A stretch of 52,648 nucleotides of DNA, taken from contig CAZNUV010000001.1 in NCBI GenBank assembly GCA_964576755.1, positions 106,883 through 159,530 on the forward strand, given 5' to 3'. Positions within the stretch are counted from its first letter, which is position 1. Every line of letters begins with the position of its first letter. The notes under the pieces were generated by a model. That model did no database searches and was not told the origin of the DNA. It saw only the letters and a program-made list of their open reading frames with translations. The translations under genes and the position numbers were made by a program. The stretch comes from Candidatus Woesearchaeota archaeon. Lineage in GTDB: Archaea > Nanobdellota > Nanobdellia > Pacearchaeales > GW2011-AR1. Positions 1,092 through 50,227 of this stretch are shown in pieces.

Positions 1092-3338
1092 ATGGATAAA
1101 CCAAATAAAATCCTAATAGTGGGGGCTGGAGAAGGTGGAAGATTACTTCTTAAAGAGTTAAAAAAAACAGGCCCTACAAAATATACCTTAGTTGGTTTTG
1201 TGGATGATAACAAAATAGGAAAAATAGAGAATATACCTATTTTAGGTAAAATCTACTCAATCCCCCTAATAGTCAAACAATATCAAATAGATGAGATAAT
1301 CATTTCTATACCTTCATTAAAAAAAGAAAAACTTGCCGAAATAATTTCAATATGTAAATCTAGTAATGCAGAGGTAAAAATTCTTCCAAGCACTTATGAG
1401 AGTGTTTATAGTTTAAAGACAGGGAGACCCTGGTATAATCCTATAAGAAAAATAAATCTTGAAGATTTAATAAAGAGAAAACCTTGTGTAATTGATTTTA
1501 AAAAAATTAAAGGACATTTTAAGGGGAAAAGGATACTTATTACTGGCGGAGGGGGTTCAATTGGTAGTGAATTATCTAGACAAATTTCTGAGTTTAACCC
1601 CCGGCTATTAGTGATTGTGGATAACTCAGAATATAATGCATATAAAATTGACATGGAATTAAGAAAGAAATATGGAAAAAAGCTTAATCTGATTACAAAA
1701 ACTTGCGATATAAAAGATTATTTAGCTATTGAAGAAATCTGTAAAAATCAAAAGATAGACATAGTATTTCATGCTGCAGCATATAAACATGTTCCCCTTA
1801 TGGAATTTAATATTAAAGAAGCTGTAAAAAATAACATTTTTGGAACCTATAATGTTGCATTAGCAGCAGAAAAAACAAATGTGAAGGAGTTTATTTTAAT
1901 ATCTACTGATAAAGCTGTAAATCCCACAAGTATTATGGGGGTTACTAAACGAATAACAGAAGAAATAATCCAATTATTTGATAAAACTAAATTTGTTACT
2001 GTAAGGTTTGGGAATGTTCTTGGAAGTAAGGGAAGTGTAATTCCTTTATTTGAGAAACAGATTAAAGAGGGAGGTCCAATAACATTAACTCATCCAAAAA
2101 TGACAAGATATTTTATGACAATTCCAGAAGCAGCACAACTAGTCATCCAGGCAGGGATTGTTGGACAAAATAAAGAGATTTTGATATTAGATATGGGAAA
2201 GCCCTATAAAATAAAAGAGGTTGCAGAAGAACTAATTAGGTTATCTGGATTAATCCCTTATAAAGATATTAAAATTAAATATATTGGATTAAGGCCTGGA
2301 GAAAAATTATGTGAAGAACTATTAACAAATAATGAACTATTAACAAAAACTCAAAATGAGAGGATTTTTGTAAGTAAGGCGGAAGCTATAGATAAAAATA
2401 AACTATCTGAAGATTTAGAAGAACTAAGAAATTTTCTCAAAACAAAGGAAATTGAAACTAAAAGGAAATTGAAAAAAATGCTTCCCTCTTATAAAATTAA
2501 AAAACCTAAAATTTTCATTACAGGGAGTAGGGGTTTTATTGGTTCTAATCTAAAGGGACAATTATTAAATAAAGGATTTGAAATAATTGAAACGCCCTTA
2601 GAAGATAATCTAGAAATAGATCTTTCAAAAAAAGAGAATTTTGCAAATATTCCTCCTGCAGAGATTGTTATTCATTTAGCATCTCATTTACCTCAAAAAG
2701 GTTCTACTAAAGAGGACTATAATAGGGATATAGAAATGACCAGGAATATTATTGAATATTGTGAAAAATATAATTCAAAATTGATTTTTATTTCAAGCTC
2801 TGCAGTATATGGGAATACTAAATTAAATCCAATTAAAGAGAACGAAGTCATAAATCCAATTAATGATTATGGTAAATGTAAGGCAGAATGTGAAAGATTA
2901 ATATTAAGCTCTAAGTTAAAAGGGGTTATCTTAAGATTTTTTAATATTTATGGGCCTGAGCAGCATAAAAAATTCTTGATTTATTCAATTAATGAAGATA
3001 TTAAAACTGGTTGTATAAAGATAATGAAACACATAAAAAGAGATATGCTGTATCTTTCAGACGCTACACAATCAATAATTAACTCTATTTATTTCAAGAA
3101 TAATCATATAAAAATATTTAATATTGGTAGTGGAAAAAGTTTTTTTATAGAAGAAATTGCAGATAAAATTAGTAGTATAAAAAAAGTGAACCCTATTAAA
3201 GAATATTTAGAACCAAATGAAACAACCATTTTAGACATATGTGCAGATATAAGTTTAGCTAAAAAGCATCTCAAATGGAAACCTAAAATTTCTCTAGATA
3301 ATGGACTAAAATTAACTATTGAGAATAATAAGACTTAA
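1092..3338 (+). CDS. PglF/CapD/WbpM-type nucleotide-sugar 4,6-dehydratase fused to a second C-terminal NAD-dependent epimerase/reductase (SDR) domain
   Basis: N-terminal GAGEGG Rossmann; TGGGGSIG, HAAAYKHVP, STDKAVNP, MGVTKR, RFGNVLGS, RPGEKL motifs; then a second TGSRGFIG ... SSSAVYG ... YGKCK SDR. Confidence 0.9.
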   Translation: MDKPNKILIVGAGEGGRLLLKELKKTGPTKYTLVGFVDDNKIGKIENIPILGKIYSIPLIVKQYQIDEIIISIPSLKKEKLAEIISICKSSNAEVKILPSTYESVYSLKTGRPWYNPIRKINLEDLIKRKPCVIDFKKIKGHFKGKRILITGGGGSIGSELSRQISEFNPRLLVIVDNSEYNAYKIDMELRKKYGKKLNLITKTCDIKDYLAIEEICKNQKIDIVFHAAAYKHVPLMEFNIKEAVKNNIFGTYNVALAAEKTNVKEFILISTDKAVNPTSIMGVTKRITEEIIQLFDKTKFVTVRFGNVLGSKGSVIPLFEKQIKEGGPITLTHPKMTRYFMTIPEAAQLVIQAGIVGQNKEILILDMGKPYKIKEVAEELIRLSGLIPYKDIKIKYIGLRPGEKLCEELLTNNELLTKTQNERIFVSKAEAIDKNKLSEDLEELRNFLKTKEIETKRKLKKMLPSYKIKKPKIFITGSRGFIGSNLKGQLLNKGFEIIETPLEDNLEIDLSKKENFANIPPAEIVIHLASHLPQKGSTKEDYNRDIEMTRNIIEYCEKYNSKLIFISSSAVYGNTKLNPIKENEVINPINDYGKCKAECERLILSSKLKGVILRFFNIYGPEQHKKFLIYSINEDIKTGCIKIMKHIKRDMLYLSDATQSIINSIYFKNNHIKIFNIGSGKSFFIEEIADKISSIKKVNPIKEYLEPNETTILDICADISLAKKHLKWKPKISLDNGLKLTIENNKT

Positions 3339-3383
3339 ATAAGGGTATTTATTGTAAGAAATATTTTAAATAAGAGTATAAAA

Positions 3384-5375
3384 ATGAAAAAAGTAAGCGT
3401 TGTAATTGTCTCCCATAATAATAAAGATATTCTTCCTAAATGTTTAAACGCCTTAAAACAACAATCATATAAGAATTTTGAGGTCTATCTGATGGATAAT
3501 GATTCTAGTGATGGTACTCCAGAATTTATTAAGAAAAACTACCCTTTAATAAAATTCTTTAATATCTCTGAAAGTGTTTCTAAAAAAAGGAATATGGCTA
3601 TTAAAAAATCAAACTCTGAGTATATAATAACCTTAGATAGTGATAATGTTTTATCAAAAGAATGGATAAAAACAGCTGTTAAGTACATGGATGAACATAA
3701 AAATGTAGGAATTTGTTGTGGAAAAATGATTGGTCGAGATAAAAAGATAGATTGGGCCGGGGGAATAATGGACCTCTCTGGAGGAATAGCTGATAGGGGC
3801 CATGGTCAAAAAGATTCTGAGGAATATGATTCATTTAAACAGATACCAGTCATGACCACTGCAAATGCAATAATAAGGAGAAAAACCTTAGAAGAAATAG
3901 GAATATTTGATGAGGTTTTTTATTATGATTTTGAAGATGCAGATTTGGGATTAAGAGCAAACTTAGCAAATTGGAGGGTAATTTACAATCCAGAACTTAT
4001 CTCAATACATTCATATCATTCCACAATATCTAAAATGGATAAAAAACAACTAGACAAAATACGTTTTTATTCTATTAGAAATAAAAATTTAATGCTTTTA
4101 AAAAATTTTGAGATGAAAACCCTATTCAGAAATTCTCCTTGGATTGTTTTATCTAACCTTAACAATTTTATAAAAAATCCTCTAATTAGTTTAAAAGCTT
4201 TTTATTGGATTTTCTCAAATATTGGAACAATATATAGTTCTAGAAAAATTACTTTAAAGAAGAAAAAAATTAAAGATAAGGATTTTTTCCAGTTGTATGA
4301 AATTCCTCCTTTAGTAAGATACTCTAATAAAAAAAACAAATTAATATGGTTTTTTAAAAGGATAAATCAAAGAAAAATAAAAAACCTTACTTTTTTCATT
4401 ACCTCAAGGTGCAATTCTCGATGTAAACATTGTTTTTATTGGAAATCTTTAAATCAAAATAAAGACCTTTCATTAGAACAAATAGAAAAAATATTTTCTA
4501 AGTTCTTTGATGTTTATGCAATTTCTTTAGGGGGAGGGGAACCATTTTTAAGAACAGATATAGACAAAATAATTAAGATTGCTAAAAAATATACTGACTG
4601 TAAGATAATTGATATTCCAACAAATGGATTAATAGATATATTTCCAAAGTTAGAACAGATTCTCAAAGAAAATCCCCATATAAGATTTGCTATACATCCC
4701 TCTTTAGATGGGTTTAAAGAAGATCATGATTATATTCGGGGAGTTAATGGAGGTTTTGAAAAAACAATATCCCTAATTAAAAGACTTGCAAAATTAAAAA
4801 AGATTTATCCTAACTTTGTAGAGCTTGCAGTAAATACTGTAGTAATGAATAAAAATTTTAAAAATTTAGAAAGATTTATAGAATTTGTAAAGACTCTTCC
4901 AGTTAGTGGACATGCTTTTGAAATAATAAGGGGGGACCATCAACAAATCTTAGGACCTCCAAATCCTTCTCAATTAAGAAAAATAGCTAAAATAGCCTAT
5001 CAAACACAAAGATATTATAATAAAAAATTTTCCCTAATAAAAAGGATATTTTATAATTTAAGATATAAAGAAGTATGGAGAACTCAACTAAATGCAATGA
5101 AAGGGAGAAAATGGAGATTTAAATGTACTGCGGGATTAACAGATTTTGTAATTGATAGTAATGGAGATGCAAAGATATGTGAACTACAGCCCTTAGTGGG
5201 AAATATGTTAACAGATAATTATCCGGAAGTCTTAAACACAAATCCGGGTAGGAGTATATTTAAAAAAATGAAAAACCATGAATGTGATTGTACTCATAAT
5301 TGCAATATCTCTTCGAGCATGGATTGTTCTTTCAAAAACATATTTTTTGACCGATGGTTTTATAATCTTGTCTAA
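3384..5375 (+). CDS. GT2 glycosyltransferase fused to radical SAM/SPASM-like domain
   Basis: N-half VSVVIV, DNDSSDGT, LDSD, EDADL (GT2); C-half CNSRCKHC, GGEPFLR, SLDG, C-terminal Cys cluster. Confidence 0.85.
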   Translation: MKKVSVVIVSHNNKDILPKCLNALKQQSYKNFEVYLMDNDSSDGTPEFIKKNYPLIKFFNISESVSKKRNMAIKKSNSEYIITLDSDNVLSKEWIKTAVKYMDEHKNVGICCGKMIGRDKKIDWAGGIMDLSGGIADRGHGQKDSEEYDSFKQIPVMTTANAIIRRKTLEEIGIFDEVFYYDFEDADLGLRANLANWRVIYNPELISIHSYHSTISKMDKKQLDKIRFYSIRNKNLMLLKNFEMKTLFRNSPWIVLSNLNNFIKNPLISLKAFYWIFSNIGTIYSSRKITLKKKKIKDKDFFQLYEIPPLVRYSNKKNKLIWFFKRINQRKIKNLTFFITSRCNSRCKHCFYWKSLNQNKDLSLEQIEKIFSKFFDVYAISLGGGEPFLRTDIDKIIKIAKKYTDCKIIDIPTNGLIDIFPKLEQILKENPHIRFAIHPSLDGFKEDHDYIRGVNGGFEKTISLIKRLAKLKKIYPNFVELAVNTVVMNKNFKNLERFIEFVKTLPVSGHAFEIIRGDHQQILGPPNPSQLRKIAKIAYQTQRYYNKKFSLIKRIFYNLRYKEVWRTQLNAMKGRKWRFKCTAGLTDFVIDSNGDAKICELQPLVGNMLTDNYPEVLNTNPGRSIFKKMKNHECDCTHNCNISSSMDCSFKNIFFDRWFYNLV

Positions 5376-6162: not shown

Positions 6163-7695
6163 CTAAGATTTTACTATAAATTTTTTATTATTGTTAAAAT
6201 CAAAAGTTTCTTTTATCATTAAAATATCTTGTTTTCCAACACCCCTAATTAGGGCCATTATAGCAAAATAAATTATTACTCCTAAAAGAATCTCAAAAAT
6301 TCCTATGATTAGATTCATATCTGTTATAAACACTTTATTTATTAAAAACAAAACAACAAACATTACTAGTGAAGAAAATAATGGTTTAATAAAGTAAGAG
6401 AATTTAAATCTGATTCCAAAGTCTTTTTTTGCCCGAATCATTAAAGCAAAAAGATAGAAATAAACACTAATAACAGTTGCAATTGCAGCCCCAGATATGG
6501 CCCAGGTAAAAGATATTTTAACTAAAACTGAGATTAATACCAAGTTTAGGATAATATTCATTAAAGAAGCAATTAAAATCATTTTAGTAACATACTTTGG
6601 TTTTTCTTTTGAAGAAAATAAAGAAATTATAACTCCTCCCAAAATAACATAAAATATGTGTCCTGTTAAAAACATAAAAGGGATTGTTGCAAGAAGATAA
6701 TCATATCCAAAAAATAACCTAATAAAATACCTCCCAAATATAAGGGCTCCAAAAGTTAAGGGAATAGATAACAAACAAATGTATCTAAAGACTTTATCAA
6801 AAGAATCTTTCATTTGAGATTCCTTCAATTGAGTGAATACTGGTAAAATAACCCAAGCTACTGAAAAAATAACCCCTAAACTAGTAACTAAAGACAATGC
6901 AGAAGAATAGTAACCAATATAATCAGGAGTTACAAAAATACCTAACATAAGAGTATCAATATATCCAAATAAGACCGAAAAAATTCCTGCTATACTCAAG
7001 TATTTTAAAAAATTTAAAACTCTTTTTTTATCAATTCCGATAGAAGATTTTTTGAGCAAAAATGGGGCTAATTTTCTTAATAAAAATAATAAAATTAAAA
7101 GAGCAATAAAATTTACTAAAATCAATCCAAGTATGATCCATATTGTTCTAAATTTTTCAATGATTATAAAAAAAACTAAACTTGCAACTGAAATTTTTAG
7201 AACTTGCAAGGTTATTTCTTTAAAAAGAAGATATTTTATCTGATTTATAGCATAAAAAAGTCTTTCAAAAAATGTTTCATAAGATAAAATAATCAGATAA
7301 ACAGAAAGGGCTAACAATAATGGAAATATTTCTGGTTTTTTAAATATAAAAAAGGCTAATGGATAAGATAAAATTATTAAGAGTAATGAAAAGATTATTG
7401 TTAAAATTGTTTTTATCTTAAGTAGATATCTTAAATAACCCACTGCCTTGGATTTTTGTTTTTTGCCCAAGGCATCAGAAACATATCTTAGTGTTGTCTG
7501 ATTAATTCCTAATTCTGTAAATGTAATAAAAACCAAGGTAATAACCATAGCCAAATTATAAATTCCAAAACCTTCTGGTTTCAAGAACCTTGCTAAAAGA
7601 ATTACAAATATTAATGCTCCAAACTTACTTATAAAAGTGTATATTGCTTGCCAAATAGACTCTCTAGCAATTTTAACTGAAACCTTTTCTTCCAT
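6163..7695 (-). CDS. Wzx/MOP-family oligosaccharide flippase
   Basis: About 14 hydrophobic segments; LARFLKPEGFGIY, IDTLMLG, IGYYS, GAAIAT motifs; start moved to ATG 7695. Confidence 0.9.
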   Translation of the reverse strand: MEEKVSVKIARESIWQAIYTFISKFGALIFVILLARFLKPEGFGIYNLAMVITLVFITFTELGINQTTLRYVSDALGKKQKSKAVGYLRYLLKIKTILTIIFSLLLIILSYPLAFFIFKKPEIFPLLLALSVYLIILSYETFFERLFYAINQIKYLLFKEITLQVLKISVASLVFFIIIEKFRTIWIILGLILVNFIALLILLFLLRKLAPFLLKKSSIGIDKKRVLNFLKYLSIAGIFSVLFGYIDTLMLGIFVTPDYIGYYSSALSLVTSLGVIFSVAWVILPVFTQLKESQMKDSFDKVFRYICLLSIPLTFGALIFGRYFIRLFFGYDYLLATIPFMFLTGHIFYVILGGVIISLFSSKEKPKYVTKMILIASLMNIILNLVLISVLVKISFTWAISGAAIATVISVYFYLFALMIRAKKDFGIRFKFSYFIKPLFSSLVMFVVLFLINKVFITDMNLIIGIFEILLGVIIYFAIMALIRGVGKQDILMIKETFDFNNNKKFIVKS

Positions 7696-7768
7696 ATAAT
7701 CCAAGAAAGTTCCTATATTTAAATAACTATTTAATAAAATAAATTAAAAGATTCTCTTAGAAATTATT

Positions 7769-8914
7769 TCAAGAAATTCTATCCAAAATATCCCTTAAAG
7801 ATTCCAGAGTTAATTTCCGTGGATTATTTTTTACTCTTTCTAGTTTAAACCCCTCTTTAATTATAATATTTTTTCTTCTTTCATTAATCCCTAATTTTGA
7901 TAATCTTGTTTCTAATCCAATCTTATGCATCAAAGAAGTTATATTCCTTGCTGCTTCTTTTTCATTATGCCCTCCTAATAAAAATGTTAATTCTCTAGTT
8001 GTTTTTTTGACATAATCTGGTCCGCGAAAATCGGCACAATCCTTACCAGAAATAAACGAATTAAAGATTAACATTTGTCCTAAGGTTAAACCTACTGCAT
8101 GGCCATGGAGCACTCTAAAATAAGAAGTCATTGGATAAGCAATTGAATGACATGCAGTCGTCTTGGTGATATTAATTGCCTTACCTGCTAAATTTGCGCC
8201 GGCCATAACATAATATTTTGCTTGTTTTTTTAATTCTGGATCAGTACTGTTTACCGAAATTTCTAGATTATTTATTAAACATTTTATAGCTTGTTTAGAA
8301 AATTCCTTAGATTGTTTATTAGAATTTATGCTCCAATAAGATTCTATTGATTGACCTAAAGCATCTATTCCTGTTGCAGCAGCTATTTTTTTAGGTAAAG
8401 ACATTGTAAATTGGGGATCTACAATTGTATATTCTGGAAGAGTAATCTCTAAGTTTCCAGAAGATTGTTTTTTCTTTCCTTTGTAATAAACTATAAAATA
8501 AGTTGCTTCACTTCCGCTTCCGGCTGTGGTTGGTATTGCAATTAACGGAATTTTTTGTTTTGTTTCTTCATAATAGTCTAATTTAATCTTTTTTGAGACA
8601 TCAATACAAGAACCTCCCCCAACTGCAATAATTAAATCATAATTATTATTGTTTTGATTAAAAATTTTAAAACCCCTCCTTATTTCCTCTTCCTTAGGAT
8701 TAGAAGAAAAATTACAAAATCTTGTAAATCTAATATTATTCTTTTGAAATATTTCTTTTAAAATATCTTCAGATCCAGATAATTTATAAGAATTATGTCC
8801 AGTTACTAAAAAAATTTCTTTATAACTTTCTTTATGTAAAATTGTATCTAGATTTTTGATAGATCCAAATCCAAAATATTCTTCTTGTCCTTGAAATTTT
8901 TTCATTTTAGTCAT
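7769..8914 (-). CDS. Phosphonoacetaldehyde reductase (group III Fe-alcohol dehydrogenase, PhpC/FomC-like)
   Basis: GGGS, PTTAGSGSE, DALGQSIES, HSIAYP, HGH motifs; ATGA-coupled directly behind phosphonopyruvate decarboxylase. Confidence 0.85.
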   Translation of the reverse strand: MTKMKKFQGQEEYFGFGSIKNLDTILHKESYKEIFLVTGHNSYKLSGSEDILKEIFQKNNIRFTRFCNFSSNPKEEEIRRGFKIFNQNNNNYDLIIAVGGGSCIDVSKKIKLDYYEETKQKIPLIAIPTTAGSGSEATYFIVYYKGKKKQSSGNLEITLPEYTIVDPQFTMSLPKKIAAATGIDALGQSIESYWSINSNKQSKEFSKQAIKCLINNLEISVNSTDPELKKQAKYYVMAGANLAGKAINITKTTACHSIAYPMTSYFRVLHGHAVGLTLGQMLIFNSFISGKDCADFRGPDYVKKTTRELTFLLGGHNEKEAARNITSLMHKIGLETRLSKLGINERRKNIIIKEGFKLERVKNNPRKLTLESLRDILDRIS

Positions 8915-10062
8915 TTCCCTAAAAAATCCATTAGGGCTTGTTTATTCTCTATAGGAGTTATTGTTGGCCTTCCAAGATCTTTTCTAGCACCCTTATTGAC
9001 TTTAATTACTAAAATTTTTGGGCCCTCTTGTTTTAAATTTTTAATTTCTTTAAAAAAATCTACTAAATCTTTTTTTGATTCTATCTGTTTTGCATTCATA
9101 TAACCACAAGCAGAAGCTATTTTTTTAAAATCAACACTATCCGAAGAAGTTGGCTGCCCCCCTGTTGAATCATAAGCATTATTATCGAAAATTATATGGG
9201 TTAAATTTTTGGGGTTATTATGCCCGACTGTTGCAAGGGCTCCTAGTTGCATTAATGTAGCTCCGTCACCATCAAAGATAAAAACTTTTTTATTTGGTTT
9301 TTGTAAGGCTATTTCTAATGCAATAGAAGATGAACATCCCATACTTCCCACTGTTAAAAAATCTTTTTCATGGCCTTGTTTTAATGATTCTCTATATTCA
9401 AACAGTTCTCTAGAAGTTTTACCAGTAGTAGAAATAATAATTTCATCTCCACCTAAGTTGTTAATAATAAACTTAATTGCATCTTCTCTAAACATCTCAT
9501 AATTAGTTTTTATTTTTTTAAGTGCATCATATTCTTCAAAAAGTCCGTTTGTCATAATAATTGCAGTAGCATAATTTGTTTGTTTTGCTGTTTGTTTTGC
9601 CCAAAAAATTTTTTCTCTTACAATATTAATATCATCTTTCTCCTCAAGAACCTTATAAGGAATCTCTAAAACATCAAGTAAGGGCAACATTATTTTTCCC
9701 ATCATTTTATGTTGTGGCTCATCCTTTTTTTCATTTTTTGGATTTCCCCTCCATCCTATCATTAATACTGTAGGGATCGAGTAAACTTCTTTAGCAGTTA
9801 AAGAAGTGAGTGGATTAACTGTTTTTCCAAGACCAGAATTTTGCATATAAATAACACCAATATTTCCAGTTGCAAGATGATATCCTGCAGCAAGAGAAAC
9901 AGCTTCACATTCGTTTACAGCAATTCTATTTGTTAAACCATTTTCATGATTATCTGCAAGAAATTTCATCCAATCTTTAAAAGTAGAATCAGGCACCCCA
10001 GTAAAATAATCTAAATTTTGTTCTTTAAATACTTTATAGAGTTCTTCACATTTTATAGTCAT
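8911..10062 (-). CDS. aepY: Phosphonopyruvate decarboxylase
   Basis: FTGVPDS, NECEA, YMQNSGLG, DEPQH, STTGKTSREL, VGSMG, DGDG...NN TPP motif, STGGQ, LGRP. Confidence 0.95.
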   Translation of the reverse strand: MTIKCEELYKVFKEQNLDYFTGVPDSTFKDWMKFLADNHENGLTNRIAVNECEAVSLAAGYHLATGNIGVIYMQNSGLGKTVNPLTSLTAKEVYSIPTVLMIGWRGNPKNEKKDEPQHKMMGKIMLPLLDVLEIPYKVLEEKDDINIVREKIFWAKQTAKQTNYATAIIMTNGLFEEYDALKKIKTNYEMFREDAIKFIINNLGGDEIIISTTGKTSRELFEYRESLKQGHEKDFLTVGSMGCSSSIALEIALQKPNKKVFIFDGDGATLMQLGALATVGHNNPKNLTHIIFDNNAYDSTGGQPTSSDSVDFKKIASACGYMNAKQIESKKDLVDFFKEIKNLKQEGPKILVIKVNKGARKDLGRPTITPIENKQALMDFLGK

Positions 10063-10069
10063 TTTAAGA

Positions 10070-11377
10070 TTATTCTCTTTCGGGAATTAATTTTAATATT
10101 TCCTTTATGGGCATGCAGAATTCCTCAGATTCATATGCTCTTTCATTTTTTAATATAGATTCTGCGGTCTTTTTCATAGCTGGATAAGCACTTCTTAATA
10201 AATGATTGGCATAGATAACCATATTTGCTCCAATTTCTTTTAATTCTTTTTCAGCCATGTGGCTATAAGTGGTAGGAACAACTACTAAGGGAACCTTATT
10301 TTCAAATTTTGAATATTCTCTACAAAATTCAAGAAGTTCTATTGGTTGTTTTTCCTTACTATGGATCATTATTGCATCTGCACCAGCCTTAATATATGAT
10401 TGAGATCTAGTTAAAGCATCATAAACTCCTTTTCCTAAAATTAAACTTTCTATTCTTGCAATAATCATAAAATCATTATTTAATTGCGCTTTTTTTCCTT
10501 GAGATATTTTATGAGAAAATGCCTCTATACTGTCTTGTGTTTGTTCTACTTCTGTCCCAAATAAAGAGTTTCTTTTTAATCCAATTTTGTCTTCTATAAT
10601 CACTGCCGAGATACCTAACCTTTCTAAAGTTCTTACCATAAAAACGAAATGTTCTGTTTGACCGCCATTATCTCCATCAAAAATTATTGGTTTAGTTGTT
10701 GATTCTAATATCTGATCTATTGTAGATAAACGGGAAGTTAAATCAACAACCCCTATATCTGGTTTTCCTTTTGCAATAGAATCAGTTAAACTACTAATCC
10801 ACATTCCATCAAATTCCTTTTTAAAACTATCTCCTTCAACAAAAGCATTTTCAACAATTAATGCGGTTATTCCATTATGGGCCTCTAAAACTCTCACAAT
10901 TTCTTTTGAGTCTAATAATCTTCGCAAGGTTCTGATTCTTATTTCTGGACTGGTCCCTATCTCTTTTAATGACTGATTTAATTGAGTTGAAGAAATTCCT
11001 ATTGTATAAGGGATTTCAACCAACTGCCCCCCCCACTCTTTTAAGGTTTCTATAACTCTTTCCCTAATTTGTTTTTGTACCCCTGTTTTCCAATCATCTC
11101 CATGAACCACATAATCGGGCCTTATTTTTCTTAAATTAGGGATATAATCTAAAGTTTCTTGAGGGATAACCTCTTCAACACCCTTAATATTCTTTACAAT
11201 TATTTTTCTTTGTTCAAAATTCATATGGGGTAATCTTTTATAACTTGCAATTGCTTTATCCGTTAATAAACCAATAACTACTCTGCCTAATTTTCTTGCT
11301 CCGTCAATTATGTTTAAATGTCCCGGGTGTAATAAATCGGCACTCATCCCAACATAAACTATTTTTTCTTGTAACAT
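10070..11377 (-). CDS. aepX: Phosphoenolpyruvate mutase with N-terminal cytidylyltransferase domain
   Basis: N-terminal DLLHPGH (HxGH) and HGDDW; PepM catalytic motif [10 protein letters not shown] (EDKx5NS); ARIES, YANHLLR. Confidence 0.95.
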
Positions 11378-11379
11378 TT

Positions 11380-12786
11380 TTAGTACTTTCCTTTTTCAAA
11401 TCTTTTTTCCCTTGTATCTTTTTTATTATAATCATAATTAAATTTAGCAACAAGCTTCTGAACTTCTTCTGCCTTAAATTCAGGAGTATTAATGTTTCCT
11501 ATTTTATATAGCTGATCATTTGTTGTTATTCCTTTACGCAAATAACCCTCTTCCCTACATATTTTCAATAATTCAGAGCCAACTAGGGGGGTTGCAAGAA
11601 AAAATGAGGCCGTATCAAAACCACAATCCTTAACAAAATTATAGGTTTCATACATCTGTTCAATAGTTTCTCCGGGAATTCCACAGATGTTGAATGCATG
11701 AACTTTTATTCCTAATTGTTTTGCCTTTAGCACAAGCGGTTTAACTCGATTTAAATCTAATGGTTTTTTTATTAAATTACTTAAAACGTACTGATTGCCA
11801 CTTTCAATGGCAAATGTCAGTTGATAACAACCCGATTTTTTCATTTCCTCAAGAAGTTCTTCATCTAATGCCCACACAGCTATTCCTTGAGGAACGCACC
11901 ATTTTATATTCATCTCTTGCAATCCTTTTACAATTTTTATTGCTCTTTCTTTATTTAATGTTAAATTATCATCTGTAAACTGAATTTCGTCAATATTATA
12001 TTTCTCTTTTAACTCTTTTATCTCCCTAAGCACATTTTCGGAGGTTCTACCCCTATAACGATTTCCCCAAAAATTTGTTGTTGTGCAGAAAACACATCTT
12101 GCCGGACAGCCCCTTGATGTAATTATTTGTATTACTCTTTTTCCTTCAGGATAGGGGTTTTGTGGAATATTGATCTCAAAATATTTTTCCATGTTTAGAA
12201 GATGCCTTGCTGGAACTGGGAGAGTATTTACATCCCCCACATATTCAAGAGCATCATTAATGAAATTTTGACTATTTATTCTGTATGCAAGACCACCAAT
12301 TTTTGAAATATCCTCGTCTACATTAAGAGCATTAAGAAGCTTTAATGTAGGTATTTCTCCTTCTCCCATTATTATGTAATCCACATAATCTAATTGAATC
12401 ACATTTTCAATATCATATGTTGGGTGGGAACCCCCTATTAATGTAATTATGTTCTTGTTTAATTCCTTTGTAAGTTTTAAAATAGCTTTTGCATTTTCAT
12501 ATTGCGTTGAAAAAATACATGAGACTCCAACAACATCCGGATTAAATTCTTTAATATTTTTTTTTATTTCTTCATCACTTAAACCATAAGTTACAAATTC
12601 TCCGTGTTCTTTTAGGTTATGATAACCTTCTATTGCAACATCGATTATTTTTACTTCATAACCTTCTTTTTCCAAAAAAGCTGCTATAGAAGCAAGACCC
12701 ATTGGAGTAACTGCTCTTCTGATATCGTTTTTATACAAAGTATATCTCGGAGTCATTAATAAAATTTTATTTATTTTTCTTTTCAT
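11380..12786 (-). CDS. Cobalamin-binding radical SAM protein (class B methyltransferase-like)
   Basis: [20 protein letters not shown]12-binding domain; [11 protein letters not shown] cluster motif; IESG, GIPGET. Confidence 0.9.
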
Positions 12787-13429: not shown

Positions 13430-14170
13430 ATGGTTTCAATAAAAGAATTAAGAAAAATCTGTGTCCCAAAATATAAAACAAAGCCTCCTTGGAGGATATT
13501 ATTTGCAAGGAAAGTTTCTATCTATTTTACATGGTTATTTATCAAAACCCCCTTAGTTCCAAATCAAATAACCTTTATGATGTTGGTATTGGGCATTATT
13601 GTAGGAATTCTTTTTATGTTTGGAAACTATTTTTATTCTTTGATTGCAATCCTACTATTTCAATTAGCTTTTTTCATAGATTGCTCTGATGGGGAAGTTG
13701 CAAGATGGAAAAAAATGGAGTCTTCTAGAGGTTTTTATCTTGATTTAATGACTCATATCATTGTTAATCCATTGATTATAATTGGAATTTCTATAGGGGC
13801 TTTTATAAATAATCCTACAATTATTCCAAATTATGTTTTTTTAATAGTTGGAGGTATTGCGACATATAGTTTAATGATAAATAATTTTGTAAAATTAAAA
13901 AAGTATGAAGTTTATATTAAATTAAACGAATTTGAAAAATTAAAGAGTCTTGATAAAAGAATTGACGCAGAAGAAGACGATAACAGCAATAAAATTAAAA
14001 ATGAAATAACCGGGTTTTTTAAAATAAGTATATTTGATGCGCTTTTTGTTTTTGGAGTCTTGAACTTATTACCCTATCTAGTTTTATTATACGGAATCCT
14101 TTTCCCATTACAAGCAATAAAAAGGTTTTATTCTGAATTTAAATCTGAAAAGAGTGTGATTCCTTATTAA
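13430..14170 (+). CDS. CDP-alcohol phosphotransferase family membrane protein
   Basis: PNQIT and DCSDGEVAR...G.YLD signature; multiple TM segments. Confidence 0.9.
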   Translation: MVSIKELRKICVPKYKTKPPWRILFARKVSIYFTWLFIKTPLVPNQITFMMLVLGIIVGILFMFGNYFYSLIAILLFQLAFFIDCSDGEVARWKKMESSRGFYLDLMTHIIVNPLIIIGISIGAFINNPTIIPNYVFLIVGGIATYSLMINNFVKLKKYEVYIKLNEFEKLKSLDKRIDAEEDDNSNKIKNEITGFFKISIFDALFVFGVLNLLPYLVLLYGILFPLQAIKRFYSEFKSEKSVIPY

Positions 14171-14622
14171 CTAAACTCTTTTTTCTTTTTATTTCTTACT
14201 AAAATGTATATTTCAGAGAATTTTGAATACCATAAATCATGTTGATAAAAAATATCTATGTAATCTAAAACCATGTGAAGAAAAACCCCTAAAAACATCA
14301 GGAAAAATAACACATTAAAATAAGATAAAATTATCAAGAGTAACATAAACTCAATCCCGTGAAACATAAAAAATGTTATTTTATGTTTCTGTTTTTCTTT
14401 GTAAGGAAGCATTCTCCACCTACGGCCTCGTTGGATGTTCCATAGATAAGCTTTTTTTATACTAAAATCCCTGTTTTTAAAAACATAATTCAAATAATGA
14501 TCTACATCAAATAAAAATGAAGACAAAAAAATAATTGAACAGGCTAAAAAACTAAATTCAAAGAAAAAATAAAAAATACAAGAAAAAATAAATCCATACA
14601 AAATATGCCATTTAGGATACAT
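14167..14622 (-). CDS. Membrane-bound metal-dependent hydrolase-like protein (YdjM/YbcI-like)
   Basis: N-terminal His, DVDH, FH, H..LD pattern in a hydrophobic protein. Confidence 0.5.
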   Translation of the reverse strand: MYPKWHILYGFIFSCIFYFFFEFSFLACSIIFLSSFLFDVDHYLNYVFKNRDFSIKKAYLWNIQRGRRWRMLPYKEKQKHKITFFMFHGIEFMLLLIILSYFNVLFFLMFLGVFLHMVLDYIDIFYQHDLWYSKFSEIYILVRNKKKKEFS

Positions 14623-31992: not shown

Positions 31993-32838
31993 TTATAATT
32001 TATCAATAGGAGATTTTATTTTCTTTAGTTCTTCTGAAGAAATGTGTGTATAAATCTGTGTTGTTGAAAGATCTGCATGACCTAGTAGCTCTTGAATTTT
32101 TCTTATATCTACACCATCTTCTAAAAGATGGGTTGCAAAACTATGTCTTAAAGTGTGACAATGAACATCTTTATTTATTCCAGCACGAACAGCAGCAGAA
32201 GAAACTATTTTTTGAAGATTTCTAATAGATAATTGTTCACTAGACTTAGAATTAGAATAAGAACTAGAAAAAACATATTCTTTTCCTGCTTTTTTCTGAT
32301 TTTCAATATGTTTTTTTAATTTTTTATATAAAAAATTAGGAATATTAAAAATCCTATCTTTTCTACCTTTTGCTTGACGAATATGACCAATTCTTTCTTC
32401 AAAATTTAAATTTTCAATTTTTAAATTGATTAATTCTGAAACACGAAAACCACAAGCATATAACATTGCAACCATTAAATAAGATTTTTTTGTATCAAGA
32501 ACTTTTAGTAAATCTCTTATTTCTTGTTTTGTTAAAACAGCAGGAATTCTCTTTTCACGCTTAGGTCTTTTTATTCCTGCTGTGATGTCTTTTTTTAGAA
32601 TATTAGAATATGCAAATTTAATTGCAGCTAAAAATAAGATTATTGATGCAGCTGCTTTATCACTAAGTTTTTCAGCCATATACATTTTTACATCATCTTC
32701 TTGCATTTCATCTGGTGTCTTACCAAAAAAATCAATCAATCTTTGATTTGCATTAATATAACTCTGAACTGTATATTGAGAATTTTTAGAAATTTTTAAG
32801 TCGATTTCAATTTTTTTTAAAAATTCTTGTTTTTCCAT
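31993..32838 (-). CDS. xerA: XerA-like tyrosine recombinase
   Basis: GFRVSEL, KGRKDR, HTLRHSFATHLL, LGHADLSTTQIY (R-K-H-R-H-Y set intact). Confidence 0.88.
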   Translation of the reverse strand: MEKQEFLKKIEIDLKISKNSQYTVQSYINANQRLIDFFGKTPDEMQEDDVKMYMAEKLSDKAAASIILFLAAIKFAYSNILKKDITAGIKRPKREKRIPAVLTKQEIRDLLKVLDTKKSYLMVAMLYACGFRVSELINLKIENLNFEERIGHIRQAKGRKDRIFNIPNFLYKKLKKHIENQKKAGKEYVFSSSYSNSKSSEQLSIRNLQKIVSSAAVRAGINKDVHCHTLRHSFATHLLEDGVDIRKIQELLGHADLSTTQIYTHISSEELKKIKSPIDKL

Positions 32839-40229: not shown

Positions 40230-40691
40230 ATGAAAATAAGAAAAGCAAAAAAAGAGGATCTTTCTGAGATTTCTAAACTAATCCTAAATACCCTTAATAA
40301 AATAAACGCCAAAGAGTATGAAAAAAAGCAATTTGAAATTGAGAGAAAAAATCACTATGTTAAGGAATTAAAAAAAGAACTTGAAGAAAAAATATTTTTT
40401 GTTTTAATTGATAAAGAGAAAATAATTGGGGTAATACAATTGGACTTAAAAGAAAAGTCAATTGATAGGCTCTTCTTAAATCCTAAATATATTGGGAGAG
40501 GGCTCGGGAAGAAATTAATGATTTATGCAGAAAATTATGCAAAGAAAAAGGGCATAAAAAAAATAATCCTCTACCCAACAGACTTTGCACTTGAATTTTA
40601 TAAAAAAGCAGGATATAAGATTACCAGGGAGTTCATGGGCACAAGAAATGGAGGATATCCTGTTACTGAAATGGAGAAAATTTTAAGATGA
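40230..40691 (+). CDS. GNAT N-acetyltransferase
   Basis: MKIRKA start at 40230; LFLNPKYIGRGLGK; ALEFYKKAGY. Confidence 0.88.
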   Translation: MKIRKAKKEDLSEISKLILNTLNKINAKEYEKKQFEIERKNHYVKELKKELEEKIFFVLIDKEKIIGVIQLDLKEKSIDRLFLNPKYIGRGLGKKLMIYAENYAKKKGIKKIILYPTDFALEFYKKAGYKITREFMGTRNGGYPVTEMEKILR

Positions 40692-41635
40692 AACTCACAT
40701 CAATTGAAGCTAAAAAAATATCCGAAGATTATAATCTGGGGGCGGTTAAATCTCTTAAAATAATCCCGGGAGGATGTGTGAATTATAACTTCTTATTAAA
40801 AACAGAAACAGGGTTTTATATCTTAAGGGGATTAGGAAGAAAAGATAAAAAAACAGAGAAAAGACTAGGGATAGAATTCAAGCTTATTAATCACTTACAA
40901 AAGAAAAACTATCCCTATGGAATTCCTATTCCTATTAAAAATTCTAAAGGAAAATATATCTCCTCGATAAATGGGGAGAGAGTTTGGATTTATAAAAAAC
41001 TTCCAGGAGTACACTCTAATAGATTTACAAATATTCAATTAAAACAAGTAGCAAAAGCTGTAGCAACCTACCACCGATATGTGAAAGACTTCCCAATCAA
41101 AGGGAAATTAATGGGCAAAACATATTCTCAATTAAAAAAAAGATATTCTCAAATGTCTAAAATTAAACCAAAGAACAAAGTAGATAAGATGATGTTAGAA
41201 GCCTTACCTATGTTTCAGGAAATTCTAAAGAAATATTATAAAATAAATTTTAGTAAGAACTCTTTATGGAATCATAGGGATATTCATAGACATAATGTCT
41301 TGTTTAAAAAAGGAGAAATATCTGGAATAATCGATTTTGAATGTATAGACTATGGCCCTAGAATAAATGATTTAGCACATATCACAAAAACATCATTATT
41401 TGAAAATGGACAAAATCTTAGTAAAGAAAGGTTTAACTTATTCCTAAGAGAATATGAAAAAATAAATCCCTTGACAAAACAAGAAAGAAAGTTAATCCTT
41501 CCTTGGTTAATTAAACATAATTGCAATATGTTTGAATACTTTTACACACATTGTTTTGATGGCAAGGTTCCTGATGTTGGATGCCTTAAATGGACAATTG
41601 ACACAACTAAGGGTGCCTTGAAGGAGTTAATATAA
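40688..41635 (+). CDS. APH/homoserine kinase type II-family phosphotransferase
   Basis: G.VNYNF, HRDIHRHNV (Brenner motif), IIDFE. Confidence 0.85.
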   Translation: MKLTSIEAKKISEDYNLGAVKSLKIIPGGCVNYNFLLKTETGFYILRGLGRKDKKTEKRLGIEFKLINHLQKKNYPYGIPIPIKNSKGKYISSINGERVWIYKKLPGVHSNRFTNIQLKQVAKAVATYHRYVKDFPIKGKLMGKTYSQLKKRYSQMSKIKPKNKVDKMMLEALPMFQEILKKYYKINFSKNSLWNHRDIHRHNVLFKKGEISGIIDFECIDYGPRINDLAHITKTSLFENGQNLSKERFNLFLREYEKINPLTKQERKLILPWLIKHNCNMFEYFYTHCFDGKVPDVGCLKWTIDTTKGALKELI

Positions 41636-41636
41636 A

Positions 41637-42413
41637 ATGAAGAAAAAACTAACCATCATATTTGGGGGATCTATTGATCTTTATTTAAAACAAATGAAGA
41701 CCTTTGGAGTAATAGAAAAATTAAACAATTGGAAATTTAAAAGAATTGCTCCTGAAAAACTTGTTGGGATAATTGAGGGTGTGAAGGTTGAAATAAGGTT
41801 TTGTTGGAATCCAGTTAGAGATAAAAATTATGAAAAGTTTAAAAAATGGATACAAAAAGAGTTAAAAGATATTGTGGCGCCTCCGGCAAGCGAACTAGTT
41901 AAGACTATAAAAAAAACCGATGCAGTGCTATTTTTAGGATTATGTGGGGCATTTAAAGGAAAGAGAAATGATGTTTATCTGCCTAATGAATTTAAAGAGA
42001 TTTTATTTACAGATTCTTTAATAAAAAAAGAACATGTCCTAAAAATCCGGCCTAAAAACTTAATAAAAACAATAAACATCTTAATCGGAAAGGTGTCTGG
42101 GAAAGTTTCAAGAGCATTAACCTCTAATCTAACTCTTATTGATGCAAATGCTGAAAATAAGAGCAAAGAAATCATCTCTCGGCTTGGTAAGAACCTAAGA
42201 AAATATGGGGATTTTGTGGAAAAGGAATCTTATCAAATTGCCAAAAAATTCAAGGGCAAATTACCTTTAGGGTTTATGGTAATTACTTCAGATGTAGTTT
42301 CTGTTAAAAAACATCAAATGAATCTAAAAAAGTTTTGTCCAGAAAAAGATGTTAAAATAATAGGGTGGCATTTTGGAGAAGCTATTAAAGCAATGATTAA
42401 TGAATTAAAATGA
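41637..42413 (+). CDS. Divergent nucleoside phosphorylase/MTAN-fold protein
   Basis: FLGLCGA, VEKES, ITSD pattern resembles G.AG / VEME / SD of PNP_UDP_1. Confidence 0.5.
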   Translation: MKKKLTIIFGGSIDLYLKQMKTFGVIEKLNNWKFKRIAPEKLVGIIEGVKVEIRFCWNPVRDKNYEKFKKWIQKELKDIVAPPASELVKTIKKTDAVLFLGLCGAFKGKRNDVYLPNEFKEILFTDSLIKKEHVLKIRPKNLIKTINILIGKVSGKVSRALTSNLTLIDANAENKSKEIISRLGKNLRKYGDFVEKESYQIAKKFKGKLPLGFMVITSDVVSVKKHQMNLKKFCPEKDVKIIGWHFGEAIKAMINELK

Positions 42414-42697
42414 AAAAGAAACCAGAAGAACCAAATTTTGATAATCTAATGAAAGAAATCTCTGCTTTTGAGAAAAAAGCAGGATTTGAAAAAACCTCAA
42501 AAAAACAGCTCGTAACATGGATAAAAGAAGAGGTTAAAAATTATGAAAATGCTAAGACTGATTTAATAAAAAGAAATAAACTTCTAGATATTATAGCATT
42601 AGTTATGCAAATTGCAATAAGAGAAGATTATTCTCTAGACTCTGCCTGGAAAAGATGGTGGAAAAAGAGTGAGAAGTATTTGAATAGAAAAAGTTAG
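42410..42697 (+). CDS. MazG-like all-alpha NTP pyrophosphatase-like protein (divergent)
   Basis: W..EEV ... LLDII...Q.A pattern; one conserved acidic residue appears replaced. Confidence 0.4.
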   Translation: MKKKPEEPNFDNLMKEISAFEKKAGFEKTSKKQLVTWIKEEVKNYENAKTDLIKRNKLLDIIALVMQIAIREDYSLDSAWKRWWKKSEKYLNRKS

Positions 42698-42727
42698 TTT
42701 TTTATATCTCATAAAGGTAATAGTTCT

Positions 42728-43669
42728 ATGAAAGTAAACTTATCAAAAAAAGATTTTAATGAAATCTTGGAAAATTATAATATTGGGAAGTATAAATCTC
42801 ATAGATACATCTTTACAGGGGGGAATACTGTCTATAAATTAACCACAACAAAGGCAAATTTTATCTTAAAGATTTATGCACAAAAAACACCCTTAGAATA
42901 TGTTAAACATCAAATAAAATTAATGGAATTTCTGAATAAAACTAAAGTTTCTACTCCTAAGATAATTAATACAAAAAATGACAAAGGTTTGTTAATTTGG
43001 AACAATAATAAAATAGCAATTCAGGAGTTTGCAAATGGGCAAGGTATTGAATATGTTAATGAGAAACTTGCTAAAGATATGGGTAAACAATATGGGATAT
43101 TAGATAAAACTCTTTCTAAATTTAAAGAAAAAAAGTGTAGTCACAGAGAAAGAGATATGTTTAAATTAATAGAATGGAATATTAACTCATTTATAGGCTT
43201 GGATTTAAAAGAAGAATCTAAAAAGCTCTTTATTGAATCTAAAAAAATTAATAAGAATAAATTAAGAAAAGGTCTTATTCATGGAGATTTGTGTGAAGGG
43301 AATTTTTTAGCTAAAGAGGATAAGGTCTCTGCGATTATTGATTGGGATGATGTTCATGAAGATTATCTTGTGGTTGAACTTGCAGTTCCTATTGCTCATA
43401 ATATGGTTACCAAGGTTAAGGTAATGAAAAAACAAATAAGAATATTTTTAAGAGAGTATCAAAAATATATCAAGTTAAACAGTGAAGAAAAAAAGGCTAT
43501 TTATTATGCAGTAAAAAGAAGAGAGCTTTCAGCAGGATCTTGGTGTTATAATCAAATTAAAAAACATCCATCTAAAAGAAAAGAATTATTAAGATGGACT
43601 AGTGTTTGTCTTAAGAGGTATAAATCTTTCTGTAAGATTTCTTTAGAAGAGTTTTTGGAGTTGTTTTAG
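42728..43669 (+). CDS. APH/homoserine kinase type II-family phosphotransferase (paralog)
   Basis: IHGDLCEGNF, IIDWDD. Confidence 0.85.
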   Translation: MKVNLSKKDFNEILENYNIGKYKSHRYIFTGGNTVYKLTTTKANFILKIYAQKTPLEYVKHQIKLMEFLNKTKVSTPKIINTKNDKGLLIWNNNKIAIQEFANGQGIEYVNEKLAKDMGKQYGILDKTLSKFKEKKCSHRERDMFKLIEWNINSFIGLDLKEESKKLFIESKKINKNKLRKGLIHGDLCEGNFLAKEDKVSAIIDWDDVHEDYLVVELAVPIAHNMVTKVKVMKKQIRIFLREYQKYIKLNSEEKKAIYYAVKRRELSAGSWCYNQIKKHPSKRKELLRWTSVCLKRYKSFCKISLEEFLELF

Positions 43670-49300: not shown

Positions 49301-50227
49301 TCACTTTTTCTTGTTTTTTGTGGACACCTCTTTTAGTGTCTTTTTATACTGGTTAATTAGTAATCTGAGTGTAGGCCTTAAATCGTCTTGTTTAGAATAT
49401 CTTTGCAGGGATTGATAATATTCCTGCCTGTCTTCAAGCATAATGTTTATTGGAGGATAGTTATTTTTTAATAAAATGTAGTTTAATAATAACCTCCCAA
49501 CTCGGCCATTCCCGTCTTGAAAAGGATGAATATGTTCAAATTGATTATGTAAGATTGCTGCTAAAATAAGGGGTTTAAATTTTTTCTTATTTTTTTTGTA
49601 CCATTCAATAAATTCATTAAGATAATATTCAAGCTCTTGTTTTGGAACTCCTGCATGAATAATCTGTCCAACAGAATTTCTTATTATAACATTAACATTT
49701 CTAAATTTTCCTGCAAAAGGTTTAGAACCCTTAAAACAGATCCTGTGTAAGTTTAATAATAAATTTAAAGATAAATCTTCTTTTGTTTCTTTTAGGTATT
49801 GTATTGCTTTTGCCACGCCTTTTGTTTCAATTTCTTCAGCATTTTCTGGATTTTTCTTGTGTAGAATTTCAGGAACTTCTTCTTCAGTTACTGTTGAACC
49901 CTCTATAGCATTAGTATTATAAACAAAATCTTCTGTAAATCTCTCCCACTCTTCTTTAGTTAAATGAACAATGTTTATTTTATTGCTGTACCTGTTTAGA
50001 ATTTCTGTTTGTTTTTTTGTTAATGTAAAAAAGAAAACTTTTGTATTTAGTTCTTCTAATAGTTCTAAAATAATTTTTTCAGCTTTTTCTTTCTTTTTTT
50101 CTAGTTCTTGTTTTGAAAGATTCAGTCCAAGATATCTTCTTATTTTTTCTACTTTGTTCTTTTCCCTATAAGAATGAACTAAGTAGTATTTAATGCTCTT
50201 GCCCTGTTTTCTTTTTTCAATATACAT
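49301..50227 (-). CDS. Fic-domain protein (AMP transferase motif intact)
   Basis: HPFQDGNGRVGR; TNAIEGS; basic beta-rich N-terminal domain. Confidence 0.92.
   Translation of the reverse strand: MYIEKRKQGKSIKYYLVHSYREKNKVEKIRRYLGLNLSKQELEKKKEKAEKIILELLEELNTKVFFFTLTKKQTEILNRYSNKINIVHLTKEEWERFTEDFVYNTNAIEGSTVTEEEVPEILHKKNPENAEEIETKGVAKAIQYLKETKEDLSLNLLLNLHRICFKGSKPFAGKFRNVNVIIRNSVGQIIHAGVPKQELEYYLNEFIEWYKKNKKKFKPLILAAILHNQFEHIHPFQDGNGRVGRLLLNYILLKNNYPPINIMLEDRQEYYQSLQRYSKQDDLRPTLRLLINQYKKTLKEVSTKNKKK

Follow-up and report, generated by a model that had tools for sequence, protein, structure and literature searches.

A Fom3 orthologue in a predicted phosphonate operon of a DPANN-type archaeon

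Here we analyze a stretch of 52,648 nucleotides (hereafter the window) from contig CAZNUV010000001.1 of a Candidatus Woesearchaeota assembly (GCA_964576755.1), and in particular a gene whose product, P0001, combines a cobalamin (B12)-binding and a radical S-adenosylmethionine (SAM) domain. The gene is orthologous to fom3, the methyltransferase gene of the fosfomycin producer Streptomyces wedmorensis, and lies in one operon with counterparts of the other early fosfomycin genes (Table 1). The likely product of this operon is cytidine monophosphate (CMP)-2-hydroxypropylphosphonate (CMP-HPP), which would probably be used to decorate a glycan or lipid of the cell surface and not as the precursor of an antibiotic.

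Organization of the operon

P0001 is a protein of 468 aa with an ATG start and has the architecture of Fom3, i.e., an N-terminal B12-binding domain (PF02310, residues 25-146, E 3.7e-26, 91.8 bits vs. a Pfam cut-off of 32.1) followed by a radical SAM domain (PF04055, residues 221-385, E 1.4e-23, 84.3 bits vs. 29.5), with both E-values far beyond chance. Its sole CxxxCxxC motif, CPARCVFC, is located at residues 227-234. An earlier note, made from the sequence alone, had described a B12-binding domain, a CxxxCxxC motif and a gene wedged between two cytidylyltransferases, and all of this holds: the gene overlaps the upstream stand-alone cytidylyltransferase gene by 4 nt (as ATGA), and its stop codon lies 2 nt before the start of the downstream aepX-type gene, which encodes a cytidylyltransferase domain (CyTase) fused to a phosphoenolpyruvate (PEP) mutase (PepM). 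The fusion protein carries HPGH at residue 17, in the N-terminal CyTase, and the PEP mutase motif at residue 262. Together with a phosphonopyruvate decarboxylase (Ppd) and an iron-containing alcohol dehydrogenase (Fe-ADH), it provides the set of enzymes associated with the synthesis of CMP-activated 2-hydroxyethylphosphonate (HEP), and all of these genes are adjacent and co-directional with the P0001 gene in the window, with spacings of -4, 2, 7, and -4 nt across the first five genes of the operon.

Table 1. Genes of the predicted phosphonate operon and its immediate neighbors (coordinates are positions in the window).
Feature	Position	Strand	Evidence and remarks
Stand-alone cytidylyltransferase-like protein, 181 aa	12783..13328	minus	PF01467, E 4.3e-12; HYGH at residue 51; first gene of the operon
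B12-radical SAM gene, protein P0001	11380..12786	minus	Fom3 orthologue; predicted C-methyltransferase on CMP-HEP
Fom1-type CyTase-PepM fusion	10070..11377	minus	PF01467 and PF13714; TIGR02320, 402.8 bits vs. cut-off 319.55
Phosphonopyruvate decarboxylase, Fom2-type (Ppd)	8911..10062	minus	TIGR03297, 452.1 bits vs. cut-off 312.5
Iron-containing alcohol dehydrogenase, in the FomC/PhpC position	7769..8914	minus	PF00465 and PF25137
Wzx/MurJ-like polysaccharide flippase	6163..7704	minus	PF01943, PF13440, PF03023; co-directional, last in the gene run
CDP-alcohol phosphotransferase-family membrane protein, P0121	13430..14170	plus	Divergent from the operon; PF01066, 47.3 bits vs. cut-off 22
151-aa open reading frame	14167-14622		Not counted in the system

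Orthology to Fom3

One genome per species was scanned with P0001, which recovered eight loci, six of them in Streptomyces (S. wedmorensis NRRL 3426, locus L025, included), and each of these six aligned with almost the full length of P0001 at 41-42% identity. The genes of L025 follow the order B12-binding radical SAM (B12-rSAM), helix-turn-helix-cupin, DUF402, AA_kinase, an open reading frame (ORF) without Pfam match, CyTase-PepM, thiamine pyrophosphate enzyme, and Fe-ADH. The B12-rSAM gene was identified as fom3 because this order fits fom3-fom4-fomD-fomA-fomB-fom1-fom2-fomC, so that the identity of our reference rests on its cluster context, and the ORF without Pfam match was assigned as FomB by position only. 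BLASTP aligned residues 3-459 of P0001 with residues 75-562 of this Fom3 at 42% identity and 61% positives (384 bits, E 1e-132). The reverse search, with Fom3 against the window genome, gave 401 bits for the P0001 gene and 149 bits for the best of the seven other B12-rSAM paralogues; the two proteins are thus reciprocal best hits. The PepM fusion and the Ppd of the operon are 63% and 41% identical to their L025 counterparts Fom1 and Fom2, respectively.

There was no Fom3 model among the NCBIfam matches of P0001. The top model was NF038361 (Sden_1168 family P-methyltransferase) with 353 bits, below its cut-off of 575, and the genuine Fom3 was also nearest to this model and below its cut-off, at 300 bits; membership of P0001 in the Sden_1168 family was accordingly rejected. 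The next matches were HpnJ (170.6 bits) and BchE (162.1 bits), the same models that scored best, always below cut-off, for the other B12-rSAM paralogues of the genome. PhpK/BcpD-type P-methylation, which the earlier note had mentioned as chemistry of the same class, found no support, as P0001 scored 105.2 bits on TIGR04479 vs. a cut-off of 600.

The AlphaFold2 model of P0001, built on an alignment of 35 sequences, had a mean pLDDT of 92.6 and a pTM of 0.91. Its top Foldseek matches in the PDB were all cobalamin-type radical SAM enzymes (TsrM, AprD4, MgmA, CysS, TokK, and OxsB; query-normalized TM 0.62-0.75), and a PDB sequence search gave the diol dehydratase AprD4 as best match (E 2.1e-16), with no closer solved structure. 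Among 933 homologues from a sequence search, one of 705 aa (P0008, 71% identical to P0001) is fused at its N-terminus to an NTP_transferase/MobA-like nucleotidyltransferase domain, a natural fusion that ties the Fom3-like enzyme to a nucleotidylated substrate. Three further homologues longer than 820 aa (E ≤ 1e-60) are fused to TPR repeats or to a second SPASM radical SAM domain and are uninformative on the substrate.

Phylogeny and association with pepM

Loci with Fom3-like genes (L numbers) were collected from genomes of the same class (9 loci, ~10 kb of flank), the one-genome-per-species scan (8), and metagenome contigs (46, searched with the alignment of 35 sequences). Ninety-seven ORFs with at least 330 residues aligned to P0001 were reduced to 85 rows by removing duplicates (L009-L017 = L026-L034; L035 = L018) and ORFs shorter than 400 aa; some of the rows are secondary B12-rSAM genes located in these loci, and six are paralogues encoded by the window genome. 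In a quick tree of the 85 rows, P0001 fell into a clade of 26 rows (SH-aLRT 99) that contains all six Streptomyces Fom3. For IQ-TREE the set was narrowed to 47 rows by dropping 11 near-duplicate or short-context rows as well as rows below 35% identity, except for three outgroup paralogues, and P0001 and the Streptomyces Fom3 were again recovered in the same clade (22 rows, support 100/99). This clade splits into one half with Streptomyces and the metagenome rows L067 and L047 (95/88) and another with 17 low-GC rows, the window among them (92/81). Taken together with the 42% identity and the reciprocal best hit, this placement argues for the earlier proposal of a Fom3-like methylase.

The same proposal was said to fail if close homologues did not co-occur with pepM, and they do: PepM was found in 18 of the 26 rows of the Fom3 clade (clade A), and in every one of the 13 rows that are flanked by 5 kb or more in both directions. 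The remaining eight rows sit at contig ends. The contig of L045 has Ppd and Fe-ADH at its edge, those of L044 and L039 end within a cytidylyltransferase-like ORF directly after the Fom3-like gene, that of L037 ends 414 bp past it, and the flanks in L047, L050, L067, and L043 are shorter than 1.6 kb on each side. Beyond this clade the association becomes looser. PepM is present in four (L027, L051, L056, L074) of the 11 rows of the sister clade (clade B, 44-54% identity) and in L036 (second copy), L066, L069, and L071 among the 10 rows of the next one (clade C, 38-45% identity).

Late fosfomycin genes and candidate transferases

The Fom4, FomD, FomA, and FomB proteins of L025, used as tblastn queries, had no match in the window genome (86.7% complete; E ≤ 1e-3) or in the 57 non-Streptomyces loci (E ≤ 1e-6), and matched in all six Streptomyces loci. 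A complete fosfomycin cluster was consequently rejected for the window, as neither Fom4 (the HppE epoxidase) nor FomD (the CMP-HPP hydrolase) was found.

Divergent from the operon, P0121 clears the gathering threshold of PF01066 and is the only match to this family in the whole window genome. Its nearest structure is AF2299 (PDB 4o6m, E 1.9e-12), and it is also close to DIPP synthase (4mnd); both belong to a family branch whose donors are soluble CDP-alcohols. The full CDP-alcohol phosphotransferase signature reads D-x2-D-G-x2-A-R-x8-G-x3-D-x3-D, of which P0121 retains D-x2-D-G-x2-A-R-x8-G-x3-D (the first three Asp as well as G, A, R, and G) within residues 84-108. Homologues of P0121 stand beside the Fom3-like gene in L018, L026, L037, and L041.

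The 90 ORFs of eight long Fom3-clade loci were annotated with Pfam, and in all eight the cassette sits among glycan genes. Glycosyltransferases and flippases also occur in the set. Wzx-like flippases were seen in L018, L040, and L057 of this set, and flippase homologues lie near the cassette in L018, L027, L040, L056, and L057. The candidate transferases for CDP- or CMP-linked groups vary between the annotated loci (PF01066 in L026, LicD in L060 and L042, TagF-like Glyphos_transf in L049), and none was recognized in L040 or, at E ≤ 1e-6, in L018. Extra LicC/MobA-type nucleotidyltransferases are common, and L057 and L036 carry type I phosphodiesterase (PF01663) and sulfatase-fold proteins at the cassette.

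Of the remaining operon genes, the stand-alone cytidylyltransferase has rfaE domain II and TagD-like proteins as nearest NCBIfam models, all below cut-off, and is found at 61-66% identity beside the Fom3-like gene in L018, L026, L027, L040, L051, L055, L056, and L074. The Fe-ADH is syntenic in the environmental relatives at 46-56% identity. The 151-aa ORF following P0121 had no family match, and its sole homologue in the collected loci (L033) is weak. The glycan locus continues further along the window with genes for a family 1 glycosyltransferase (GT1), a protein joining Polysacc_synt_2 and epimerase domains, a family 2 glycosyltransferase (GT2) fused to a radical SAM domain, and a polysaccharide deacetylase; the GT2 fusion (3384-5375, plus strand) is 663 aa long, with the glycosyltransferase at residues 5-173 and the radical SAM domain at residues 339-501. 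The window has a GC content of ~29% and contains the archaeal gene block S13/S4/S11/RpoD/L18e/L13/S9. A listing of sequencing runs gave six DNA data sets (lake water metagenomes, two of which are possible sources of the window) and no RNA data set, a result that carries no information on expression. Its second half carries a tyrosine integrase, a Fic/DOC protein, and two APH-type phosphotransferases (31993-32838, minus; 49301-50227, minus; 40688-43669, plus) among many ORFs without a family, and may be mobile DNA.

Cobalamin-binding radical SAM genes in the genome

The genome of the window (G000) comprises 709,536 bp in 21 contigs. Eight of its ORFs have a B12-binding domain, and all eight are radical SAM fusions of 454-524 aa. 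Six are located at 83-120 kb on contig C1, five of these in the ~25 kb before the window (C1:83476-106501; the window starts at C1:106883), and the other two at C4:42556-43722 and C9:6664-7863. Near the cluster on C1 there is a match to STT3/AglB (C1:78791-79561).

Proposed pathway and its alternatives

In the published route, according to PMC8158854, Fom1, Fom2, and FomC lead to 2-HEP-CMP, which Fom3 methylates at C2 by means of a 5'-deoxyadenosyl radical and methylcobalamin to (2S)-2-HPP-CMP, whereupon FomD hydrolyzes this compound and Fom4 epoxidizes the result. By analogy, the PepM domain of the operon would convert PEP to phosphonopyruvate, Ppd would decarboxylate it to phosphonoacetaldehyde, and the Fe-ADH, as the predicted phosphonoacetaldehyde reductase, would make HEP. 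CMP-HEP would then be formed by the CyTase fused to PepM (the arrangement of Fom1), by the 181-aa enzyme that stands alone, or by both. P0001 would abstract a hydrogen at C2 with the 5'-deoxyadenosyl radical and introduce a methyl group from methylcobalamin, giving CMP-HPP. From this donor, P0121 could transfer the phosphonate to a lipid or to a glycan carried by a lipid, and export of the phosphonate-bearing product may be the task of the Wzx-like flippase. Since the genome has neither a FomD-type hydrolase nor a Fom4 epoxidase, CMP-HPP is probably not set free and not made into fosfomycin.

While the observation itself is confirmed, we give the full reading, i.e., Fom3-type methylation together with the use of CMP-HPP as a donor, a probability of about 60%. 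Its first part is the stronger one, as orthology and gene context make P0001 a likely C-methyltransferase of CMP-HEP, while the chances that the product ends up decorating the surface via P0121 appear even.

Several points weigh against this reading, starting with the fact that every step of the pathway, with its substrate, the stereochemistry, the acceptor, and the cytidylyltransferase that would act on HEP, is predicted from sequence and context. The Fe-ADH is only 28% identical to FomC of L025 and scores 151 bits on TIGR03405 (Phn_Fe-ADH), under the cut-off of 423.7. Among Ppm proteins as a whole, 23.6% are PF01467-PepM fusions (PMC6697681), so that the fused CyTase is not diagnostic of HEP, and the second, stand-alone cytidylyltransferase has no explained role in the pathway. 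P0121 has a His at the fourth Asp of the signature, opposite an Asp in AF2299, and so lacks the full motif; this position is not conserved among 11 homologues, being His also in L037 and varying in nine others. Moreover, its homologues are only 26-47% identical and were detected in just four environmental loci of clade A. In the tree, the Streptomyces rows were flagged for compositional heterogeneity and have a long stem (0.96); given these features and a non-monophyletic outgroup, we draw no conclusion on the direction of transfer. The distribution is sporadic too, with none of 27 genomes of the window's own family matching at E ≤ 1e-80.

The cofactor raises a further difficulty. The earlier note had expected cobalamin scavenging, yet G000 (86.7% complete) has no match to six Pfam families for uptake and remodelling, i.e., PF01497 (BtuF-type), PF01032 (FecCD/BtuC), PF02361 (CbiQ/EcfT), PF02654 (CobS), and the adenosyltransferases PF01923 and PF02572, for which control genomes responded. 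These searches thus revealed no gene by which the archaeon would import or remodel corrinoids, and do not explain how its enzymes obtain the cofactor. Nine same-class genomes of 91-98% completeness (G153, G222, G082, G356, G197, G196, G285, G350, and G062), which were picked for their Fom3-like match and therefore represent a biased selection, each have between 1 and 9 B12-binding ORFs; PF01497 was matched in one of the nine and CobS in none.

Finally, some relatives of P0001 lack the phosphonate genes. In L055 of clade B, a cytidylyltransferase and Fe-ADH are present, but the 9.9 kb downstream contain neither PepM nor Ppd, and L028 and L080 of clade C, each with at least 8.8 kb on both sides, lack pepM and have an adjoining CDP-OH transferase. 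The substrate range of the wider family therefore exceeds phosphonates, and the caveat of the earlier note that B12-rSAM genes also occur in glycan loci without phosphonate genes applies to this wider family (the 38-45% tier) and not to the clade that holds P0001.

These relatives also bear on the best of the alternatives, in which P0001 has the same fold and radical methyl transfer but another substrate or outcome, such as a different CMP- or CDP-linked head group, a different carbon, or repeated methylation. L028 and L080 combine the CDP-OH transferase with a cytidylyltransferase in the absence of pepM, the operon itself has two cytidylyltransferases, one of which (the stand-alone one) could supply a phospho-alcohol as the other substrate, and TokK and CysS, which methylate iteratively, are among the best fold matches. 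We nevertheless consider this alternative unlikely, as P0001 belongs to the clade in which every member with enough flank has pepM, and its gene is translationally coupled to the PepM fusion across a gap of 2 nt.

A soluble product, that is, free 2-hydroxypropylphosphonate or an antimetabolite derivative released by an unrecognized hydrolase, would be in line with the role of the same early enzymes in antibiotic synthesis in Streptomyces, and the PF01663 phosphodiesterase/nucleotide pyrophosphatase of the L057 and L036 cassettes could free a phosphonate from CMP. The window contains no homologue of PF01663, FomD, or Fom4, and the operon ends in a Wzx-like flippase and faces the only CDP-alcohol phosphotransferase of the genome within a glycan locus (GT1, GT2, epimerase, deacetylase), which leaves this option with a small probability, lower than that of a different substrate.

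Even less probable is a non-methylase chemistry on a sugar of the surface glycan (HpnJ-like ring contraction, rearrangement, or dehydration), as the seven paralogues may perform. HpnJ and BchE are the NCBIfam matches that follow NF038361, AprD4 is the best PDB sequence match, and five of the seven other B12-rSAM genes lie in the adjacent glycan island; all these matches are, however, far weaker than the 384 bits to Fom3, the NCBIfam ones being far below cut-off, and none of the paralogues groups within the Fom3 clade or shares the best model of P0001. A P-methyltransferase making a phosphinate, as the name of the best NCBIfam model (NF038361) would have it, is highly improbable given that a genuine C-methylase, Fom3, is matched by the same model, likewise with a sub-threshold score, that the PhpK family scores far below cut-off, that SD1168 itself, according to the review PMC9204698, may perform C- or P-methylation on an unknown physiological substrate, and that the Pfam annotation revealed no H-phosphinate-making gene in the operon.

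Distribution and related loci

When 401 genomes from the phylum, including that of the window, were sampled, 10 had a match at E ≤ 1e-80, the best match being 64% identical. The closest homologues are named Nanoarchaeota or Nanoarchaeia archaeon. Such a sporadic distribution of the gene fits a mobile surface-decoration module.

Some of the related loci show additional features. A second B12-rSAM family (21-24% identical to P0001; a clade of nine rows, SH-aLRT 99) adjoins the Fom3-like gene in many loci (L018:11435-12907, L026:4139-5719, L040:15256, L074:8403, L054:5062, L055:1239, L059:8461, L080:7832, and L047:125), standing between the Fom3-like gene and pepM in L018, and the paralogue at C1:105266-106336 of the window genome is its long-branch sister; this family may perform a further phosphonate modification. 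L036 contains an NTP_transferase-CyTase-PepM triple fusion, a Ppd-NTP_transf_3 fusion, another Fom3-like gene, which belongs to the more distant clade, and a class V aminotransferase (1832-3868, 6403-8271, 9328-10800, and 10805-11785), which suggests that this locus yields two differently methylated phosphonates. Directly upstream of the cassette of L018 (5860-9361), a Nanoarchaeota metagenome-assembled genome and the closest named relative, there are genes for ATP sulfurylase, APS kinase, and a PHP-domain protein, and it is possible that the same glycan is sulfated too.

In L055 (2779-8000), the Fom3-like gene is accompanied by a stand-alone cytidylyltransferase (64% identical), an Fe-ADH (48%), and a flippase, with PepM and Ppd absent in between, so either these two genes were deleted or the substrate is other than a phosphonate. 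The pepM-less relatives of 38-45% identity (L028:7580-11300, L080:10001-12400, L073, and L029) adjoin a CDP-alcohol phosphotransferase-like gene, in L028 together with a cytidylyltransferase, a hint that CDP-activated head groups are, in general, the methylation substrates of the wider family.

Relation to known systems and significance

The operon shares with the early fosfomycin pathway of S. wedmorensis the domain architecture of Fom3 and all four early genes, which are adjacent in the window. It differs in its host, a DPANN-type archaeon, in its location in a low-GC glycan island, in the absence of Fom4, FomD, FomA, and FomB, and in the addition of a stand-alone cytidylyltransferase, a CDP-alcohol phosphotransferase-like protein, and a flippase, and its predicted end product is a conjugated 2-hydroxypropylphosphonate (HPP) instead of fosfomycin. 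The Pnt pathways for surface 2-aminoethylphosphonate (AEP), as described by Rice et al. 2019 (PMC6697681), likewise have PepM and Ppd, activation by cytidylyl transfer, and delivery to a surface glycan or lipid, and PF01467-PepM fusions figure in the inventory of that work; there, PntC or LicC-type cytidylyltransferases act with LicD-type transferases. The branch point in the window is instead an Fe-ADH, giving HEP, and not an aminotransferase, a B12-rSAM methylase would act after the activation, and the place of LicD, which does occur in the relatives L060 and L042, would be taken by a member of the CDP-alcohol phosphotransferase family as candidate transferase. Two further comparisons concern single proteins: the Sden_1168 (SD1168) family is the nearest curated model for P0001 and Fom3 alike, yet both stay below its cut-off, and P0121 has PF01066 and a partial signature in common with AF2299 and DIPP synthase but lacks a fused cytidylyltransferase domain and has His in place of the fourth Asp.

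A search of the openly accessible literature, mostly in listings and passages, revealed no description of a Fom1-Fom2-FomC-Fom3 cassette outside fosfomycin producers or of a conjugated hydroxypropylphosphonate head group. The inventory of Li and Horsman (PMC8942020) lists only 12 archaeal neighborhoods, with no mention of Fom3 in its accessible portions. P0001 is an orthologue of a known enzyme; its pathway context and predicted product are not described in the literature searched.

Tentatively, and with less than even odds, HPP may be a real, so far undetected surface head group that DPANN archaea and further uncultured lineages derive from CMP-HPP. The fosfomycin pathway of Streptomyces would then be the same decoration cassette with FomD and Fom4 added, and these tiny archaea would rely on an as yet unrecognized cobalamin route for up to eight or nine B12-rSAM enzymes each. 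If the prediction for the operon holds, the known surface phosphonate head groups (AEP, hydroxy-AEP, methylphosphonate, and HEP) would be joined by a C-methylated one, in whose synthesis radical B12 chemistry acts on a nucleotide-activated intermediate. The early half of fosfomycin synthesis would be a widespread surface-decoration module of uncultured archaea and bacteria, which offers a hypothesis for how the antibiotic pathway was assembled, and the 468-aa archaeal orthologues could serve as alternative Fom3 proteins for structural work. Ultra-small DPANN genomes with many cobalamin enzymes and no recognizable corrinoid synthesis, remodelling, or import would, in addition, make the dependence of these archaea on their hosts or communities for this cofactor testable.

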